Below, in pieces: positions 1,802 through 43,790 of a stretch of DNA of 50,827 nt. Under the pieces are notes generated by a model. That model ran no database searches. It had not been told where the DNA came from and worked only from the letters and a program-made list of their open reading frames with translations. Position 1 is the first letter of the stretch; each line of letters starts with the position of its first letter. The translations under genes and the position numbers were made by a program. The stretch is from contig DATJGL010000136.1 of the NCBI GenBank assembly GCA_035495075.1, positions 1 to 50,827 on the forward strand, in the 5' to 3' direction. This DNA is from Gemmatimonadales bacterium (GTDB taxonomy: Bacteria > Gemmatimonadota > Gemmatimonadetes > Gemmatimonadales > GWC2-71-9).

Positions 1802-3151
1802 ATGACACATATCTCCGCCGCACCGACCAATCCAGACACCGCGCCCGTCTCCGATGAGCAGCTTCGGGCGACTCTCGCGGCGGAACTGGCCGACGCTCGA
1901 CGCCGTACGCTCTGGCTGGTAGAGCCGCTCAGCGACGAGGACTTGCACCGCCAGCACGACCCGCTGATGAGCCCCGTGCTCTGGGACCTGGGGCATATCG
2001 CTGCCTTCGAGGACCTGTGGCTGACGCACAATCTGACCGGCCGCATCGAATTCAGTGAGATGCCGGGACTCTACAACCCGTTCGAGCATCCCCGGCGCGT
2101 ACGGGGGACCCTCGCATTGCCGCGCCTGGCTGAGGCTCGGCAGACGATGGAGGAGATCCGTGCCCGCGCATTGGCCCGGCTCGACACCGCCGACTTTCGC
2201 AGCGGACCACGGCTGCTGCATGACGGGTACGTGTATCGGATGGTGCTTCAGCACGAATACCAGCACGACGAGACGATTCTTCAGACGCTTCAGCTCAAGC
2301 GAGGGGACCCCTACGTGCCCCCCGAGCGTCGCCCGCTTCCACCTCATTCCAGGTTCTACCAGCCCGGCGAAATGGTCTTCTTCCCGGGTGGTCCGGTCGA
2401 GCTCGGCACCGACGACCGGTCGGCTGCGTACGACAACGAACGTCCTCGCCACCAAGTGGATCTCGCGCCCTTCTGGATCGATGTGACACCCGTGACCAAC
2501 GGCGACTTCCTCGAGTTCGTCGAGGCCGGCGGTTATCGGAGCCGCGAGCTGTGGAGCGAGGAAGGCTGGCAGTGGTTGAGAGAAGCCGGCGTCTCGGCAC
2601 CCAAGCACTGGGCCAAGCGCCTCAGCGTCTGGACCACCCGGACAATGGACCTGATCCGCCCCCTGGATCCGCTGCGCCCCGTCTGCCACGTGTGCTACCA
2701 CGAGGCGCAGGCGTATTCCAGATTCGCGGAGAAGCGCCTTCCGACCGAAGCGGAATGGGAAGCCGCCGCGTCATGGGATCCGGCAAGCGGTACGAAGCGG
2801 ATGTATCCCTGGGGCGACGAGCCCTGGACGCCGGAGCTGGCCAATCTGGATCAGACTGCGTTCGACACGGTGCCGGTCGGCGCCTACGCACGGAACGTTT
2901 CGCCCATCGGCTGCCATGGCATGATGGGCGATGTCTGGGAGTGGACCGCCAGCGATTTCCTTGCGTATCCCGGCTTCGAGGCATTCCCCTACAGCGAATA
3001 CTCCCAGGCGTTCTTCGGCTCGGAATACAGAGTTCTCCGCGGCGGGTCCTGGGCCACGCGCCCGGGCGCGGTAAGGTCCACCTTCCGCAACTGGGACTAC
3101 CCTATCCGCCGCCAGATCTTCAGCGGCTTTCGGTGTGCTCGCGATGCCTAA
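1802..3151 (+). CDS. egtB: Ergothioneine biosynthesis sulfoxide synthase EgtB (DinB-like N-domain plus FGE-sulfatase C-domain)
   Basis: DinB-type N-terminus (HDPLMSPVLWDLGHIAAFEDLW, HEYQHDET). C-terminal FGE-like GGSWATRP...FRCARD. GGAG is 8 nt upstream. Lies 16 nt after the reductase gene. Confidence 0.85.
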   Translation: MTHISAAPTNPDTAPVSDEQLRATLAAELADARRRTLWLVEPLSDEDLHRQHDPLMSPVLWDLGHIAAFEDLWLTHNLTGRIEFSEMPGLYNPFEHPRRVRGTLALPRLAEARQTMEEIRARALARLDTADFRSGPRLLHDGYVYRMVLQHEYQHDETILQTLQLKRGDPYVPPERRPLPPHSRFYQPGEMVFFPGGPVELGTDDRSAAYDNERPRHQVDLAPFWIDVTPVTNGDFLEFVEAGGYRSRELWSEEGWQWLREAGVSAPKHWAKRLSVWTTRTMDLIRPLDPLRPVCHVCYHEAQAYSRFAEKRLPTEAEWEAAASWDPASGTKRMYPWGDEPWTPELANLDQTAFDTVPVGAYARNVSPIGCHGMMGDVWEWTASDFLAYPGFEAFPYSEYSQAFFGSEYRVLRGGSWATRPGAVRSTFRNWDYPIRRQIFSGFRCARDA

Positions 3152-36753: not shown

Positions 36754-37355
36754 TGCACCTCTCTATGGAACAGTTGTTGGCCCTTCGTGAACCGGGCGCC
36801 GAGCCCGGCACCCAGGCCGCTCGGGCTCACTTGGATGCGTGTGAAGCGTGCCGGGCCGAATTCGATCGATTGCACCAGCGCATCGCCCGACTCAAGGCCC
36901 TGCCCGCACTCCGCCCCACTCGCGACCGTTGGCCCGCTGTACGCGCCCGGTTTGAAGCCGAGCGGCGCGCGCGGCGGCTCCGCCGGGCTGGCCTGGTTGG
37001 ACTAGCGGCGGCTGCCAGCATCGCGTTGCTGATCGGTTTGCGCGGAGTCTCTCACCCACCCATCGCCAGCGCCGTTCCGGCGGAGTTGTCGGAGGCTAAG
37101 GCACGGTCGCAGGCTCTCGAAGCCGCGATCGACCAGTACCATCCCGAAAGCCGTGTGGTCGATGGGAGAACTGCCCGGATTGCGCAGGAGTTGGAGGACC
37201 GAATCGCCGCCGTCGATCGCGAGCTGCAGGCGACAGACCTGGCCGATCCAAGCCATCGGGAAGCTCAGGAGCTCAATCTGTGGCGTGAGCGAGTTGGTTT
37301 GCTGGATGCGCTGGTGGACGTGCATCTCACCCGCGCCAGCCACGTGGGGTTGTGA
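36753..37355 (+). CDS. Anti-sigma factor (zf-HC2-like N-terminus, single TM)
   Basis: HLDACEACRAEF motif. TM helix GLVGLAAAASIALLIGL. Start overlaps the sigma stop (GTGATG). Confidence 0.65.
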   Translation: MHLSMEQLLALREPGAEPGTQAARAHLDACEACRAEFDRLHQRIARLKALPALRPTRDRWPAVRARFEAERRARRLRRAGLVGLAAAASIALLIGLRGVSHPPIASAVPAELSEAKARSQALEAAIDQYHPESRVVDGRTARIAQELEDRIAAVDRELQATDLADPSHREAQELNLWRERVGLLDALVDVHLTRASHVGL

Positions 37356-38236
37356 TGCCCAAACCGCAGCTTGGTAGCGTGAGAACCGGATGGCTCGCCC
37401 TCGGGATTGCCACGCTGGGCATTCCCATGATTGCTGCCCGCGCGCAGGCGCCGGTTCACCTCGAGCAGGCCCGCGACGAGATGTTCAACTTGGTGGTGAA
37501 CCGCCGGGCCCGGCTTGGACTCAAGGTGAATCTGCAGGCGCAGGACACCGACTCGATCGGCGCGCGGGTCGATGCAGTAACACCCGGCGGGCCGGCCGCG
37601 AAGGCCGGTATCCGCTCCGGCGACGTCATCACACGCCTCGACGGGAATTCCCTGCTAACAGCCCCGGAGCTACCGCGAGAGCCGGGCCGGTCCCTGCCCG
37701 GCTTGCGGCTGATCGAGCTGGCCGCCCGGCTCGGTCCGAACGACACCGTTCCACTCGAGTTTCGCCGGGGCACCGACCGCAAGGTCGTCACTCTCATCAC
37801 CGCCGGCGATCCCAGGTCGCTCGAGATGGGTAATCGCATCGTCATTCCCCGAGACTTTGCTCAGCAGAGCCTCGAGGGTATGCGTGCAATGGGCTCGGAT
37901 CCGGAAATCGGAGACCTCGATATCCGGCTTCCACGAGTGGCGATGCTCTACGGCGGGGAGCTCTCAGAGCTCGAGCTGGCGCCCCTCAATCCCGACCTCG
38001 GTCAATATTTCGGCACCAGCGAGGGGATTCTGGTGATCAGCGCTCCTCGCGGCTCCTCGCTCGGCCTCCGAGGCGGCGACGTCGTCCTCGCGGTGGACCA
38101 GCGCAAGCCAGCCAGCCCGTCACACCTGCTGCGGATCCTGCGAAGCTACGATCACGACGAAAGCTTCAAGATCGACATTCTGCGCAATCGGAAGCGCGAG
38201 ACTATCACCGCCAAGCGGGACGAGCCGAAGCAATAG
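37352..38236 (+). CDS. Secreted tandem-PDZ domain protein (no protease domain)
   Basis: Signal peptide. Two PDZ cores (GARVDAVTPGGPAAKAGIRSGDVITRLDG and GILVISAPRGSSLGLRGGDVVLAVDQ). Start overlaps the anti-sigma stop. Confidence 0.7.
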   Translation: MMPKPQLGSVRTGWLALGIATLGIPMIAARAQAPVHLEQARDEMFNLVVNRRARLGLKVNLQAQDTDSIGARVDAVTPGGPAAKAGIRSGDVITRLDGNSLLTAPELPREPGRSLPGLRLIELAARLGPNDTVPLEFRRGTDRKVVTLITAGDPRSLEMGNRIVIPRDFAQQSLEGMRAMGSDPEIGDLDIRLPRVAMLYGGELSELELAPLNPDLGQYFGTSEGILVISAPRGSSLGLRGGDVVLAVDQRKPASPSHLLRILRSYDHDESFKIDILRNRKRETITAKRDEPKQ

Positions 38237-38242
38237 CCGCCG

Positions 38243-39961
38243 TCACGCGGTTACCTGTACCCTCACCCTCTGCAATCGCTCCGGATGCACCTGTCGGGCC
38301 AGCGCTGCGAACTGGCTCGGGTCGAGGCTTTGCGGACCGTCGCTGAGCGCGGTTGCCGGACTTGGGTGGACCTCCACGATCAAGCCACAGGCCCCTGCCG
38401 CCAACGCCGCCAGACCGAGCGGCGCCACCAGTGAGCTGATACCGGCGGCGTGGCTGGGGTCTACCAGTACCGGCAGGTGGGTGCGCTCGCGCACCAGCGC
38501 GACAGCGTTCAGGTCGAGTGTATGACGGGTGGCGCGCTCGAAGGTGCGTATCCCGCGCTCGCACAACACCACGTTAGGGTTACCCTCGGCGAGCACGTAC
38601 TCCGCCGCCATCAACCACTCCTCGATGGTCGCGCCGGCGCCACGCTTCAGGAGAATCGGCTTGCCGCTCCGGCTGGCCGCCCTGAGCAGCGAGAAGTTCT
38701 GCATGTTGCGGGCGCCGATCTGGAGCATGTCGGCGAAGTGCGCGACGAGCGGGACCTCCTCCCAGCTCAGCACTTCCGTCACCACCGGAAGGCCGGTGGC
38801 CTCGCGGGCCTGCGCCAGGTAGCGCAACCCCTTCACGCCAAGGCCCTGGAAGTCGTACGGCGAGGTCCGCGGCTTGTACGCGCCGCCTCGCAGCATGTCT
38901 CCTCCGGCCTCCGATACCAGCGCGGCGGTCTCGAGAATCATCTCCTTCGTTTCGACGGAGCACGGGCCCCCGATGAGAATCGGCGTCTCCCCGCCGAACG
39001 AGAGATCACCCACCGCCACGAGGGTACCACCCGGGTTCCGCCGGCGATCTACCAGCGGGACCTCCGGCTTTCGGACGTAATGCGCCGGGGTCGGCACGGG
39101 CAATGCGAACCGGAGAGCCCCGTCCGGCCACGCTTCGTAGCTGCCGAGAATCACCAACTCGACTGCGAGAGCCTCGATCTCCTCCAATGCCTCCGCGACG
39201 CGGGGGTCGGCAGCGGCGCCGGCCACGTCTACGTAGAACCGGTAGGTCCACGGCTTGGAGCGCTCGGGCCTCGACTGCAGCGCGGTGACGTTGACGCCGC
39301 GGACACCGAACGCCTGGAGCGTGAGGGCCAGGCTTCCGGGCTTGTGATCGACGCAGACGATCAGCGAGGTCTTGAACGGCCCGGTCGGGCTCTGCGGGAG
39401 TGCGGCTTCCGCCCGGGTGAAGGTCAGAAACCGGGTTTGGTTGGATGGGTCGTCCTCGATTCGCTCGGCCAATGGCACCAATCCATGGGCATCGGCTGCG
39501 TGACGGGCGGCAATCGCCGCGAGTGCCGGATTGCCCTCGCGCGCGACGATCTCTGCACTTCCCGCTGTGTCCCATGCACTGACCAGCTCGGCAGCCGGCA
39601 GGTGCTTGCTCAGCCAGATCCGGCATTGCCCCAATGCCACGGAGTGGGAAAGCACTCTGCGGATGCCGCGCAGCTCGGCGCCAGGGAGGCCCATGAGGGT
39701 GTGATGAACCGGCAGCATCACCTCGTGGGTGAGCCGCAGATCCCCGTCTCCGAAGGCTTCCTGGAGCAGGTCGTAGGTCGAGGTGACCGAGCCGATCAGA
39801 GAGTTCTCGATTGGGAGAATCCCGGCCTCGGCCGCGCCGTCACGAACGGCCGCGACGACGTCCTGCACGTCGCGGCAGGCAACAGGCTCGAGGTCGGGCC
39901 ACCGCCGCCGTCCGGCCGCCTCACTGAAGGAGCCCGTGGTTCCCTGGATTGCTACGCGCAT
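38243..39961 (-). CDS. Fused prephenate dehydratase-ACT / 3-deoxy-7-phosphoheptulonate (DAHP) synthase type I-beta
   Basis: The N-terminal half has PDT motifs (RVAIQG...[20 protein letters not shown]) and the ACT motif [18 protein letters not shown]. The C-terminal half has DAHPS/KDO8PS-like motifs GGPCSVE and [20 protein letters not shown] 39961 has a GGAGGA Shine-Dalgarno. The upstream 54 codons of the tracked ORF read through a terminator. Confidence 0.85.
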
Positions 39962-39988
39962 CTCGCCGACTCCTCCGAAGAACAGGAC

Positions 39989-40017
39989 AAAAAAAGCCCG
40001 CCGTGTTTCTCGGCGGG
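39989..40017 (-). terminator. Intrinsic terminator inside the pheA-aroF leader (attenuator terminator)
   Basis: On the minus strand: CCCGCCG-AGAAACA-CGGCGGG (7-bp all-GC stem, 7-nt loop), then C and U7. Ends 27 nt upstream of the fusion-gene ATG. Confidence 0.7.
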
Positions 40018-40046
40018 GCGTCGATGGGTCCGTTCTGGCTCGAGCG

Positions 40047-40136
40047 TCAGTGCACGCTGGTACCGGAACCGGACGGCCGTGGCGCCGCGCCGGTGCGAGC
40101 AAAGTAGAAATACCAGTACGCACGCCGCATGTTCAT
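40047..40136 (-). CDS. Candidate 29-aa attenuation leader peptide rich in aromatic codons
   Basis: Minus-strand translation gives [29 protein letters not shown]. Codons 7-12 are TAC TGG TAT TTC TAC TTT. There is no Shine-Dalgarno; the ATG sits 6 nt after the candidate -10 element, so it may be leaderless. Confidence 0.55.
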
Positions 40137-40142
40137 ACGAGC

Positions 40143-40172
40143 AGTCTACGGCCCGGCTGCCGCATCTGTCAA
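40143..40172 (-). promoter_or_regulatory. Candidate sigma70-type promoter of the aromatic leader / pheA-aroF transcript
   Basis: On the minus strand: consensus -35 TTGACA (40172-40167), 18-nt spacer, -10 TAGACT (40148-40143). Confidence 0.5.
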
Positions 40173-40208
40173 GCGCGACCCACCGACCGGCTTGGCTCCG
40201 GGCCGCTT

Positions 40209-41273
40209 ATGTTTCGCCGACCCCGATACCGCTGCAACACACCCTTCGGGAGCAAGGCCTTGCGACCTCGATCCGTGGCCCTGAGCCACGGTGCGTACCT
40301 GCTCCGCTTGCCTCGGATCCCGTTTTGTGTTGCCGGCGTGATTTGCCTCCTGCTGGTGACGCCGGCGGCGGCCCAAAGTCTGCCCGCGTATGCGCCGATC
40401 AATCCGATCGCCCAGTCGCGCAGCGGAGTGTACTTCCAGCCTTACCGTGAGCCGCGCTTGGGCCACCTGAGCCTGGACGTCCGTCTCGACTACGGAAGCG
40501 CTATTGAATACAACCTGCCGGCTTCCCGACCCAGCTACCTCCTCGACGCCGAAATCCTGCGACTCGAGGTGGCCGCAGCGCGGGACCTGAACCAGCAGTT
40601 TTTCCTGTTCGGTACTATAGGAGTGGGCGGCGCGTATGCCGGGTTTCTTGATGGCTTTCTTAATTGGTACCACGACCTGCTCGGTCTCAAGTTGCCAGAA
40701 CGAACCAGCCGCCCGAACAACTCGTTTGCGTATCAGATGGCTCTGAACAACGGGCTGACCGTCGTCCGGTCACCGTCGGATCTGTTTCTCAACGATCTCC
40801 GGTTGGGCGCGGGCTACCGGCCCACGCCCTGGTATCAGGGAGTGGTCACGCTCACCCTTCCGACGTCAACCGCACCCGACGGCTATGGTCGAGGCACAAT
40901 TTCGCTCAGCGCGTTGAATACATTCCACACCCGCCTGAGCTCACGATTGACGTTCGAGGGCGCGCTGGGGTTGGGATGGACGCCAACGCACGGGGATCTT
41001 TCGCCCTACCAGGAAACCGTGTTCGCATCCCTGGCCTCCGGGCTCAGGTTCCGCTTCTGGGGCCGGCAATCTCTCTTCGCGACCGTGTTCTACCACTCGC
41101 CGTATTATCACGACACCACACTGCCCGCCCTGGATCGACGGGAGCTTTCGCTCGACTTTGGATGGCTGCTGGCGACGAAGGGTGGGAGCGAGTGGCGAAT
41201 CGGGATGACCGAGGACCTGGAGCCGAGCGGGCCCGCCATCGACATCATATTCCGTTTGGGGGGGAGTTTCTGA
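40209..41273 (+). CDS. Hypothetical outer-membrane beta-barrel-like protein
   Basis: Hydrophobic signal-like segment VAGVICLLLVTPAAAQS. Alternating aromatic/aliphatic beta-strand pattern. Ends in ...IIFRLGGSF (terminal Phe). Start is uncertain (ATG 40209, TTG 40308 or GTG 40335). Confidence 0.5.
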   Translation: MFRRPRYRCNTPFGSKALRPRSVALSHGAYLLRLPRIPFCVAGVICLLLVTPAAAQSLPAYAPINPIAQSRSGVYFQPYREPRLGHLSLDVRLDYGSAIEYNLPASRPSYLLDAEILRLEVAAARDLNQQFFLFGTIGVGGAYAGFLDGFLNWYHDLLGLKLPERTSRPNNSFAYQMALNNGLTVVRSPSDLFLNDLRLGAGYRPTPWYQGVVTLTLPTSTAPDGYGRGTISLSALNTFHTRLSSRLTFEGALGLGWTPTHGDLSPYQETVFASLASGLRFRFWGRQSLFATVFYHSPYYHDTTLPALDRRELSLDFGWLLATKGGSEWRIGMTEDLEPSGPAIDIIFRLGGSF

Positions 41274-41284
41274 TCCGCCTTCGG

Positions 41285-41524
41285 TCAGGTTGTCTTGGCG
41301 CCAAAGAGGAACTGCTCCATGTTGGCGAACAAGAATTCCTTGGCTTGCTGCTCCCGGAGGTTGAGGCCGTAGTGATTGATCAATTGTTGCTGGGTCTTGA
41401 GCCACTCAGCCCAACAAGCGCCGCAGATCTCCTGGTACGCCCGAAGACCGAGGTCGTTGGGAAACGGCCGGAAGCTCATCTGATCGCGGTCCTGCCCGCA
41501 GCGGACGCAATGGATCGTCGCCAT
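41285..41524 (-). CDS. yggX: Fe(2+)-trafficking / oxidative damage protection protein YggX
   Basis: MATIHCVRCGQDRDQM..PFPNDLG..I...IC..CW.EW...Q..LINHYGLN is the YggX family signature. Confidence 0.85.
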   Translation of the reverse strand: MATIHCVRCGQDRDQMSFRPFPNDLGLRAYQEICGACWAEWLKTQQQLINHYGLNLREQQAKEFLFANMEQFLFGAKTT

Positions 41525-41554
41525 GGGTCTGGAAGATAGTCGCCCCCTGGAGGC

Positions 41555-41845
41555 TCAAGGCGTCAAGTGCCGCTGGACCACCTCCCCGCGGCGAATGTCG
41601 CGGGCCCCTCTGGCCGTTCCTAGGCCGACGCCCAGGCCGAACACCAGAGCAGTCGTCGAACCGATCATTGGGAGCAAGACAAGCGGAGACGCCAGAATGG
41701 CGGCGACGGCTCCGGCCAGCCATGGAGCCCAGGCCGATTGGACCGCGTCCACGAACCTGAGTCGGCGGCCCACAAAGCGCTTCGCCAGGACATATCCGCC
41801 GAAGCCGGCGGCGCCGGCGACCAACAGGGCAATAATGGGATACAT
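41555..41845 (-). CDS. Small membrane protein, hypothetical
   Basis: 96 aa with three hydrophobic helices and no recognised family. Confidence 0.45.
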   Translation of the reverse strand: MYPIIALLVAGAAGFGGYVLAKRFVGRRLRFVDAVQSAWAPWLAGAVAAILASPLVLLPMIGSTTALVFGLGVGLGTARGARDIRRGEVVQRHLTP

Positions 41846-41933
41846 GGGTTAATCTCGGATCTGATTGAGGTTCGTTCCACTACGGAACGGCGACCCTGGA
41901 GGATTCGGGGCGATTCCCGACTGGAGTGAACGA

Positions 41934-42368
41934 ATGCCGAAGCATCCAACAGTGATGGTTCCGAACGTCGGCCCCATGGACCACGCCTGGGACGTCCTGG
42001 GCGAGTGGCAGGTGGAACTGGAGCATCCCGAGGGGGATGAGCCGATTCGCGGCACCGTGAACTTCCGGTCCTGGGCCGAAGGCGAGCTGAAGCTCGAGCC
42101 GGCGGCCGCGGCGGCGATTGGGGTTCCGCGGACGATCGCGCTCGAACGAACGAGTGACGTGCATCGGACCGATGCGGGCGGGGGGGCGCTCCAGTGGGTG
42201 CTCTTGGCCCCCGCCTCCAAATGGTCGCTCCAAGTCACCATGTGGCCTGGCGCGCTCCATCTTTTCGTCCATGACGCGGACGACGAGGACGAACAGTTGT
42301 ATCGAGCCCGTGCCACCCGTACGCCCGCCTACTATGCCCGCAAATATCCGCTGGAGGAGGCGGAGTGA
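41934..42368 (+). CDS. Hypothetical protein
   Basis: ORF with coding-like composition and an acidic C-terminus. No recognisable motif. ATG 41934 chosen over the upstream GC-noise extension. Confidence 0.4.
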   Translation: MPKHPTVMVPNVGPMDHAWDVLGEWQVELEHPEGDEPIRGTVNFRSWAEGELKLEPAAAAAIGVPRTIALERTSDVHRTDAGGGALQWVLLAPASKWSLQVTMWPGALHLFVHDADDEDEQLYRARATRTPAYYARKYPLEEAE

Positions 42369-42794: not shown

Positions 42795-43790
42795 CTACCA
42801 GCGCACGGCCGCGCTGCCCCACATGAAGCCGGATCCGAACGCGGTCAGAACCAGGAGGTCGCCCGATTGCAGGCGCCCCGCCCGCACGCATTCGGCCAGC
42901 GCGATCGGGATGGTCGCGGCGGTGGTGTTGCCGTAGCGTTGGATGTTGTTGTACACCTGATCGTCCCCAAGCGCCAGATCCCGCTGGACCATCTCCGAGA
43001 TGCGAAGATTCGCTTGGTGCGCGAGCAGGAGGCGAATGTCGGCGGGCTGGGCGCCGATCTTCTCCAGCACGGCGCGGACTGATTGGGGCATGCGAACCAC
43101 GGCGTGGCGGAACACTTCGCGCCCGTCCATTTCGAGGTACTGCTTGCCCGCCTCCAGGTGATCCACCGTGACTCGCGGATGATACATCGAGCCGGGGACG
43201 TCGACCCAAAGCTTGTCCGCGAATCCGCCGTCGGAATGGAGGTCGAAGGCCAGGATGCCACGGTCGGCGCGCTCGGCCGGCCCGAGCACCACCGTTCCGG
43301 CGCCGTCGGCGAAAATCACAGCGGTGCTTCGACCCCTGCTGCTGACGTCCATGCCGGTAGACTGAATCTCGGCGCCCACCACCAGAATGCGTCGGTACAG
43401 GCCGGTTTGGATCCACGCGTCTGCCACGGACAACGCGTAGATGAAGCCGCTGCACTGCGCCCGCACGTCCAGCGCCGGAATCGGGTCGAGGCCGAGATCG
43501 CGCTGGAGGTACACGCCATTTCCTGGGGCGAAGTGATCCGGCGTCGAGGTCGCATACACGATCGCGTCGAGCTCCGACGCCGGTATCCCTGCCGCTTCGA
43601 GGGCCCGGTTCGAGGCGCAGAGCGCCAATTGGGCACCGGTCTCTCCTTCGCGAACCCAGCGGCGCTCCTCGATGCCGGTACGCGCCCGAATCCACTCGTC
43701 GGTCGTGTCCATGACCGATGAAAGATCCTGGTTGGTGACCACGCGATCAGGCACGGCAAAGCCGGTACCCAGGATGCAGGCTCGCGGCAT
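42795..43790 (-). CDS. fabH: Beta-ketoacyl-ACP synthase III
   Basis: Active-site Cys in AQCSGFIYAL, His in LLAHQANLRI, Asn in YGNTTAATIP. Confidence 0.9.
   Translation of the reverse strand: MPRACILGTGFAVPDRVVTNQDLSSVMDTTDEWIRARTGIEERRWVREGETGAQLALCASNRALEAAGIPASELDAIVYATSTPDHFAPGNGVYLQRDLGLDPIPALDVRAQCSGFIYALSVADAWIQTGLYRRILVVGAEIQSTGMDVSSRGRSTAVIFADGAGTVVLGPAERADRGILAFDLHSDGGFADKLWVDVPGSMYHPRVTVDHLEAGKQYLEMDGREVFRHAVVRMPQSVRAVLEKIGAQPADIRLLLAHQANLRISEMVQRDLALGDDQVYNNIQRYGNTTAATIPIALAECVRAGRLQSGDLLVLTAFGSGFMWGSAAVRW

Follow-up and report, generated by a model that had tools for sequence, protein, structure and literature searches.

Leader-peptide attenuation is known in its classical form from the pheL-pheA, trpL, and hisL systems of Escherichia coli. 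Two further cases come from Corynebacterium. In C. glutamicum, a leader named aroR that carries a Phe-Tyr-Phe sequence is described as attenuating the aroF operon, which codes for DAHP synthase, and the attenuation is relieved by Phe limitation (Neshat et al. 2014, as summarized in PMC11802643). In C. diphtheriae, RNA-seq data place the transcription start site of the ilvB leader peptide gene at its start codon, and thus the transcript is leaderless (PMC5784534).

Here we describe a leader of this general kind from a Gemmatimonadales bacterium. The DNA examined, hereafter called the window, is the whole of positions 1 to 50,827 (50,827 nucleotides) of contig DATJGL010000136.1 from GenBank assembly GCA_035495075.1. 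On its minus strand, a short open reading frame (ORF) with six consecutive aromatic codons and an intrinsic terminator precede a gene for a fusion protein composed of prephenate dehydratase (PDT), an ACT domain, and DAHP synthase. An initial annotation made from the sequence alone had proposed these parts as a candidate attenuator. Our comparative analysis of the locus and its relatives indicates that the element is very probably a ribosome-mediated attenuator that senses the charging of aromatic tRNAs, mainly that of tRNA for Phe, and thereby adjusts how strongly the PDT-ACT-DAHP synthase fusion is expressed. Members of the Gemmatimonadota are common in soil, but their genetics has hardly been studied. 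No report on leader peptides or attenuation in this phylum was found in the searchable literature, a search that did not cover subscription literature.

A conserved leader ORF and its promoter

The leader ORF has 29 codons followed by a TGA stop codon (40047..40136; ATG at 40136, TGA at 40049-40047), and like all other leader features given below it is read from the minus strand. Codons 7-12 (TAC TGG TAT TTC TAC TTT, 40118-40101) are the presumed regulatory codons and specify Tyr-Trp-Tyr-Phe-Tyr-Phe. The six consecutive aromatic codons pointed out in the initial annotation were confirmed, and no other run of at least six exists in any frame of the window. Block shuffles of the window yield a mean of 0.55 aromatic runs of at least four codons. 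A second run, of four aromatic codons, lies at about 43376-43387 on the minus strand, inside a long ORF and in another frame, and is at the level expected by chance.

The closest relatives of the fusion protein are encoded by metagenome-assembled genomes (MAGs) of Gemmatimonadales, and also by a few MAGs labelled Acidobacteriota. In the 200 nucleotides upstream of the gene, the order of the parts is identical across all 18 close loci: TTGACA, ATG, the ORF, five conserved segments designated A through E, and a run of T nucleotides. Every one of these loci has an ORF of 24-29 codons that includes an aromatic run (for example, SWFFYFT or YWFFFT), and the conserved segments read CCGGCGCGGC for A, GTCCGGTGTCGG for B, CCGACCGGAC for C, CGACGCCCCGCCGG for D, and CCGGCGGGGC for E. 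When species-representative genomes were searched with a DNA pattern for the leader, about 67 further instances were recovered, and the remaining hits were chance matches within long ORFs in other phyla. The fusion gene begins 71-104 nucleotides past the leader stop codon in each of the pattern-selected loci that have enough downstream DNA (61 of 61).

To avoid circularity, loci were also selected by protein sequence only, using the PDT half of the fusion, and the best 80 of 204 relatives were taken, every one a MAG from Gemmatimonadota. A covariance model named R1 was built for the leader and run on these loci, on the window, and on control loci. R1 matches 78 of the best 80 protein-selected loci, always on the same strand and just upstream of the gene. 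The two misses have just 44-51 nucleotides of upstream DNA, and so the model matches 78 of 78 loci where the sequence suffices. The aromatic ORF is intact in 77 of these 78. In the window, R1 yields a single match at 39985-40136 (94.7 bits, E value of about 4e-18), and there is likewise one copy per positive locus. No match at an E value below 0.1 was obtained in 677 kilobases of control loci. The alignment of relatives' upstream regions that the initial annotation had recommended thus found the aromatic ORF and the terminator retained in every locus with enough sequence. In total, at least about 100-200 species-level genomes have the leader before this gene. The composite of parts is beyond chance as judged from these sequence comparisons, a conclusion that is based on conservation in more than 100 species-level genomes and not on statistics from within the window.

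Six Acidobacteriota-labelled MAGs (L016, L017, L106, L127, L128, and L144) carry the same fusion gene at 65-70% identity together with a leader variant that has a shorter run, such as MTRYWYSPLTG..., MTRYRHFSFTG..., or MTRYWYWPFTC.... These carriers may be mislabelled bins, members of a sister lineage, or the result of horizontal transfer.

A promoter scan and the conservation of the family both identify a -35 hexamer, TTGACA (40172-40167), and a -10 hexamer, TAGACT (40148-40143), separated by an 18-nucleotide spacer. The -10 hexamer ends 6 nucleotides before the leader ATG. This is the sole sigma-70-like site in the region 38000-42000, where 0.5 would be expected by chance, and taken alone the site is weak evidence. 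Among 71 distinct upstream regions, the TTGACA element is present in 60 at the same distance from the leader ATG, the 18-nucleotide spacer is present in 53, and most carry a -10 element with the family consensus TA(G/C)(G/C)TT. The distance from the -10 box to the ATG is 6 nucleotides in 47 of the 71 (range 5-9), and in all 18 close loci TTGACA stands 36-37 nucleotides before the ATG. Since transcription would start about 7 nucleotides after the -10 box, the predicted transcript start falls on the A of the leader ATG.

A Shine-Dalgarno (SD)-like motif precedes the leader ATG in only 5 of the 71 regions. The conserved promoter spacing suggests that the leader ORF is probably translated as a leaderless mRNA, a possibility that had been raised in the initial annotation and that is supported by the distance between promoter and ATG. 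An SD-type interaction has been noted for only 22% of Gemmatimonadetes genes (survey, PMC10783764), which is compatible with other modes of initiation in these organisms. The leader of one relative, L252, starts with GTG.

All 71 distinct leaders carry 3-7 aromatic codons within some stretch of seven codons, with mean numbers per leader of 3.0 for Phe, 1.2 for Tyr, and 0.65 for Trp. When 109 distinct leader peptides are compared, Phe is found in 108, Tyr in 98, Trp in 76, and all three in 73. By these counts, the predicted sensor is a mixed run led by Phe and not an obligatory three-amino-acid sensor. This refines the mixed three-amino-acid sensor of the initial annotation.

Mutually exclusive folds and the position of the ribosome

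The intrinsic terminator (39989..40017), which was also found by a terminator scan, is formed by segments D and E. Its 7-base-pair G+C stem, CCCGCCG/CGGCGGG, joins 40017-40011 with 40003-39997 across a 7-nucleotide loop, and the stem is followed by CTTTTTTTGT, which includes seven T nucleotides at 39995-39989. In the family, the positions of the terminator stem are paired in 90% of cases, compared with 41-55% when the partners are slid, and 3 pairs show compensatory changes, compared with 3.1 in shuffles.

The other segments provide alternatives to this pairing. Segment A (CCGGCGCGGCG, 40083..40093) closely resembles segment E and is near-invariant in the 69 sequences aligned. It can pair with segment B (GUCCGGUUCCGGU, 40062..40074) to form an early hairpin, called P1, or with segment D (CGCCCCGCCG, 40011..40020), which forms the 3' strand of an antiterminator and shares nucleotides with the 5' arm of the terminator. 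Segment B can pair with A or with segment C (GCCAGAACGGAC, 40028..40039), and the helix formed by B and C encloses the leader stop codon.

When 19 sequences were folded jointly with RNAalifold, only the terminator, the A:B hairpin, and one 4-base-pair helix were returned. RNAalifold cannot show mutually exclusive folds, and therefore the antiterminator was derived from transcripts truncated before E. Transcripts cut just before this segment are predicted to fold into a two-helix rod that consists of A:D, a short linker helix (CGAUG:CAUCG in most members), and B:C, with the leader stop codon in the apex. For the window, the A:D helix joins CGGCGCGGCG (40092-40083) with CGCCCCGCCG (40020-40011) at 9 of 10 positions. 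The same pairing had been put forward in the initial annotation as an antiterminator, and it is backed by comparative analysis and by compensatory changes. The structure is larger than was noted then, as it also includes the B:C helix around the stop codon, and it has a competitor in the A:B hairpin. The folding analysis recommended at that stage, a search for mutually exclusive structures, thus found the rod and the terminator.

Nucleotide covariation supports the rod in two alignments of the family. In an alignment of the 69 sequences made with MAFFT, 82.8% of its positions are paired, compared with 34-46% when the partners are slid. Ten pairs show compensatory changes, and the covariation score beats 500 of 500 shuffles. 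In an alignment fitted to the model, 86% are paired, compared with 31-46% for slid partners, and 16 pairs show compensatory changes, whereas shuffles yield 7.8±1.3 and none of 500 reaches 16. All six pairs of the main B:C helix carry compensatory changes, including flips between CG and GC, and the linker helix varies among UA, GC, and AU. The P1 hairpin, considered together with a UUUACC:GGUAG extension, is 78.5% paired, compared with 29-48% for slid partners. Median predicted energies are -25 kcal/mol for the terminator hairpin, -47 kcal/mol for the segment from A to D, and -27 kcal/mol for the region of the early hairpin. In these structure models, the antiterminator rod is mutually exclusive with the terminator, whose 5' arm it uses.

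The effect of a translating ribosome was modelled by masking a 28-nucleotide footprint at each codon in transcripts ending before E for the 69 sequences. Masking of full-length leaders was dropped as a test because the terminator wins almost everywhere, and truncated transcripts were used in its place. The mean probability of D pairing with A is 0.81 as long as the ribosomal A site lies on an aromatic codon other than the last. It is 0.54 on the last aromatic codon and 0.30 and 0.10 on the next two codons, and reaches 0.04 or less with the ribosome +3 to +9 codons past the run. The median gap between the last aromatic codon and segment A is 7 nucleotides, and this position is conserved. In the model, the end of the aromatic run therefore coincides exactly with the 3' limit of the zone in which a stalled ribosome would leave A free. 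The barrier from the early fold to the rod, as estimated along direct paths, has a median height of 9.1 kcal/mol in the absence of a ribosome, compared with 5.6 kcal/mol when one is stalled, and it is lowered by the stalled ribosome in 58 of the 69 sequences. This is the expected direction, although such estimates are crude, too much so to decide which state is the default.

These features suggest the following mechanism. Transcription would begin on the A of the leader ATG or immediately beside it, and the leader would be translated as a leaderless message. Segments A and B would fold first into the local hairpin P1. In most relatives, this hairpin could be lengthened if the final Phe codon and the ACC after it pair with GGUAG further downstream. 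After transcription of C and D, the rod (A:D, linker, and B:C) could sequester the 5' arm of the terminator. Otherwise D would pair with E, and the T-run would end transcription. When aromatic amino acids are scarce, the ribosome would stall on the Tyr, Trp, or Phe codons and hold open the base of P1, leaving A and B free. The stalled ribosome would in this way permit the rod to form before E is made, and RNA polymerase would read into the gene. When aromatic amino acids are plentiful, the ribosome would continue through A and B in the direction of the stop codon at the B:C apex, the rod would not form, and the terminator would.

Several observations weigh against this mechanism or against the strength of its support. 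In the absence of E, the rod is favoured also without a ribosome (0.76) or with one at the stop codon (0.75). Basal termination would thus appear to need a ribosome over A and B during synthesis of D and E, steric exclusion by a ribosome in the apex of the rod, or trapping of the RNA in P1. Equilibrium folding of the complete leader favours the terminator in most sequences and for almost all placements of the ribosome, and the decision must therefore be kinetic, governed by the state of D when E emerges. Read-through accordingly depends on the unproven assumption that the rod is the earlier structure to form and persists long enough. The terminator of the E. coli trp attenuator likewise wins at equilibrium by textbook energies.

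Other points of this sort concern the parts themselves. The terminator hairpin in the window, with 7 base pairs and -14.6 kcal/mol, is among the weakest of the family, which has medians of 12 base pairs and -25 kcal/mol. In addition, the UUUACC:GGUAG extension of P1 is shifted in the window sequence. Compensatory changes in P1 do not exceed those in shuffles, as might be expected because A and B each need two partners and are near-invariant. The best covariation figures come from the alignment that was fitted to the structure and that leans towards it. The minimum free energy of the whole leader is no more stable than that of shuffles (z = 0.02) and is uninformative. Finally, there is one exception, L262 (437-579), whose ATG opens a different frame from that of the aromatic codons. 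This may be an assembly error or a decayed copy.

The same folds could in principle be flipped by a ligand or a protein, with the ORF being incidental. The leader would then be a riboswitch, resemble a T-box, or be the target of a regulator that binds RNA. Past the aromatic run, conservation is higher for the RNA than for the peptide, long conserved helices are present, and the ribosome-free fold before E is already the antiterminator, such that a factor stabilizing the termination state is conceivable. However, an incidental ORF is at odds with the observation that 77 of 78 protein-selected loci retain an ATG at a fixed distance from the promoter, an open frame of 24-29 codons, and the aromatic run, despite free variation in the other N-terminal codons. 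Moreover, the run extends exactly as far as a ribosome can advance with A still free, the three helices account for all conserved segments, and no T-box or riboswitch family in Rfam matches the region. We consider a switch of this type very unlikely, and ribosome-mediated attenuation remains the favoured explanation.

The pattern of conservation within the ORF bears on a second alternative, in which the leader encodes a functional small protein or trans-acting peptide, or in which the terminated leader acts as a small RNA, either replacing attenuation or adding to it. Roles in trans are reported for the Sinorhizobium trpL peptide and for the attenuator small RNA (PMC7298713, PMC7968998). In the present family, the C-terminal part of the peptide appears to be conserved as ...GAAR.PSG.G.V, but the RNA pairing explains this conservation. 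The codons before the run vary freely, with entropies of 1.4-1.6 bits at all three codon positions, whereas after the run the three positions are almost equally conserved (0.63, 0.62, and 0.85), third positions about as much as first and second. In L014 (2835-2982) and L135 (79-223), a deletion of one nucleotide just after the run alters the peptide (...TKPARPRW...), and yet CCGGCGCGGC and the RNA segments are kept, so that nucleotides are preserved and residues are not. The length of the peptide and the position of its stop also vary, between 24 and 29 codons. From the variable N-terminus, the equal conservation of codon positions, and these two frameshifts, we infer that the codons of the run and the RNA are selected and the remainder of the peptide is not. 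Selection in these alignments appears to act on the start codon, on an open frame with aromatic codons, and on the downstream RNA, rather than on the peptide product. This second alternative is, in our estimation, as improbable as a ligand- or protein-dependent switch.

A chance promoter, ORF, and hairpin in a G+C-rich region, or a hairpin that merely insulates the gene from upstream transcription, can be considered effectively refuted. One promoter-like site where 0.5 is expected is not significant alone, and the free-energy z-score of 0.02 points the same way. Even so, the element keeps its position and order across more than 100 species-level genomes, it accompanies the fusion gene with 100% co-occurrence in both pattern- and protein-selected loci, compensatory changes are present, and the divergent upstream gene leaves no upstream transcription to insulate against.

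The downstream gene and its surroundings

The fusion gene (38243..39961, minus strand) codes for a protein of 572 amino acids with Pfam matches to PDT (PF00800), ACT (PF01842), and DAHP_synth_1 (PF00793), the last of which indicates a DAHP synthase of the type I family. Its start codon is the ATG at 39961, which is preceded by the SD sequence GGAGGA (39976-39971), as read from the sequence, and GGAG is kept in relatives. The homologues of the fusion protein share the N-terminus MRVAIQG with the protein from the window. The locations initially assigned to the promoter, leader ORF, terminator with its seven T nucleotides, SD sequence, and ATG were all found to be correct when the minus strand was read. 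The Phe-binding ACT domain of the PDT half might also confer allosteric control on the DAHP synthase half. Full-length matches to the same fusion outside Gemmatimonadota were seen in Spirochaetota, Syntrophomonas, Desulfoscipio, and Anaerolineae MAGs. In one Anaerolineae locus that carries the fusion (L020), a small ORF, MKGYWSFFYAYFYGAPKAAVASR, with nine aromatic residues is located about 584 nucleotides upstream of the start of the match at 3001.

Beyond its ATG, the frame of the fusion gene stays open in the upstream direction across the terminator and the greater part of the leader ORF, as far as a GTG at 40123 on the minus strand. The resulting ORF of 626 amino acids (38243-40123) was rejected as the true gene since the homologues all begin with MRVAIQG after the conserved SD sequence. 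The region is rich in G+C, and the plus strand likewise has a frame without stops over the full length of the leader. The plus-strand ORF at 39783-41273 was likewise rejected as a gene crossing the leader, because its DUF3187 match and a signal-peptide-like start point to a gene at about 40275-41273. Automatic gene callers could therefore swallow the attenuator, and placing the start of the fusion gene at 39961 corrects a likely gene-calling error.

The attenuator region occupies a divergent intergenic stretch of about 310 nucleotides between the fusion gene and the DUF3187 gene on the opposite strand (about 40275-41273, plus strand), whose product has a signal-peptide-like N-terminus. Because this neighbour is divergent, the terminator cannot end or serve an upstream transcript. 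Sequence on the DUF3187 side is similar in many related loci, which suggests conserved synteny. On its other side, the fusion gene, which is monocistronic in the window, is followed by a convergent gene for a PDZ-domain protein (37352-38236, plus strand). The ends of these two genes are 6 nucleotides apart, and the terminator scan found no terminator-like hairpin between them (38236-38243). When the window was scanned for other attenuators, in the form of small ORFs that carry amino-acid runs and lie before terminator-like hairpins, none was detected.

Comparison with other leaders

A search of region 39700-40500 against Rfam with E values up to 10 returned only chance-level hits, with no leader family and no T-box among them. 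A scan at gathering level of the window and related loci recovered only tRNAs, which are in other loci. The amino-acid leader families relevant to this comparison are the Phe, Trp, His, Thr, Leu, and Leu/Phe leaders. On the basis of sequence comparison, the Gemmatimonadota leader appears to be a new and well-delimited family of a known kind of regulator that is homologous to no leader catalogued in Rfam.

DAHP synthase genes of Chloroflexota (Limnocylindria/Chloroflexia) are preceded by an unrelated mini-attenuator, as seen at L055:2590-2790, and a similar leader occurs in L028, L032, L035, L040, L043, L044, L046, L047, L050, L052, L056, L058, L071, L075, and L079. Its parts are ordered as a TTGACA promoter, a very short or absent 5' untranslated region, an ORF of 11 codons, two hairpins, a terminator, and the gene. 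Examples of the ORF are MSHYFYFRCPA, MDRFFYFRCPA, MTHWYFYSSPA, and MNAPYWFTPPA, which have an aromatic run and a conserved Pro-Ala-stop ending. The terminator is strong (GCAGAGG...CCTCTGC) and is followed by at least five T nucleotides and GTT. This leader matches neither an Rfam family nor the R1 model. It resembles the Gemmatimonadota leader in having a TTGACA promoter, a run of Phe, Tyr, and Trp codons, a terminator with a T-run, an associated DAHP synthase gene, and no counterpart in Rfam. In contrast, its sequence is unrelated, its ORF is much shorter, and the DAHP synthase that it precedes has a short N-terminal domain and is not a PDT fusion.

The Chloroflexota family, aroR, and the Gemmatimonadota leader together suggest that mixed-aromatic attenuators of DAHP synthase genes recur outside Proteobacteria. 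A broader proposal, that attenuators with 5'-terminal leader ORFs of mixed aromatic codons form a wide class so far overlooked and have evolved independently before DAHP synthase genes in at least three phyla (Gemmatimonadota, Chloroflexota, and Actinomycetota, the last represented by aroR), is tentative and on balance doubtful. If it is true, bacteria that make little use of SD sequences would repeatedly have tied the pioneer ribosome to RNA polymerase by loading 70S ribosomes on a 5'-terminal AUG.

The mechanism proposed for the Gemmatimonadota leader is itself a textbook one. Its interest lies in the prediction of how entry into the aromatic amino-acid pathway is regulated in these organisms, and in a natural case for studying how a leaderless leader ORF could couple translation with transcription. 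The R1 covariance model is ready to be used for annotation. If the broader proposal on the three phyla is true, the charging of Phe-tRNA would set flux into the whole shikimate pathway by way of a single attenuator on the PDT-DAHP synthase fusion.

Two of the features that were regarded as unusual in the initial annotation, the mixed aromatic leader and the possibly leaderless ORF, have precedents in Corynebacterium. Compared by description only, aroR of C. glutamicum is also a mixed aromatic leader before a DAHP synthase gene, in a high-G+C bacterium where leader ORFs can be leaderless. Unlike the Gemmatimonadota leader, aroR belongs to another phylum and precedes no PDT fusion, and a Trp codon is not reported for it. 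The ilvB leader of C. diphtheriae resembles the arrangement predicted here, with an ORF at the 5' end of the transcript and no SD sequence. It differs in that its transcription start site was mapped, whereas that of the Gemmatimonadota leader is predicted from promoter spacing, and in that it serves a different amino-acid pathway.

The resemblance to trpL, pheL, and hisL of E. coli that had been noted initially holds at the level of function and not at that of homology. As in those systems, a short ORF with codons for the end products and a terminator precede a biosynthetic gene, an antiterminator shares a strand with the terminator and would compete with a putative earlier hairpin, and the position of the ribosome would decide the fold. 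The enzyme encoded downstream, like the product of E. coli pheA, includes prephenate dehydratase. The differences are that homology to the E. coli leaders is undetectable in Rfam at E values up to 10, that the Gemmatimonadota leader is probably leaderless rather than led by an SD sequence, and that its run mixes Phe, Tyr, and Trp codons, whereas that of pheL is purely Phe. Moreover, the two-helix rod re-pairs both strands of the early hairpin, A with D and B with C, and holds the stop codon in its apex. Finally, the gene codes for a PDT-ACT-DAHP synthase fusion where E. coli has pheA, so that one attenuator would serve both entry into the pathway and the Phe branch.

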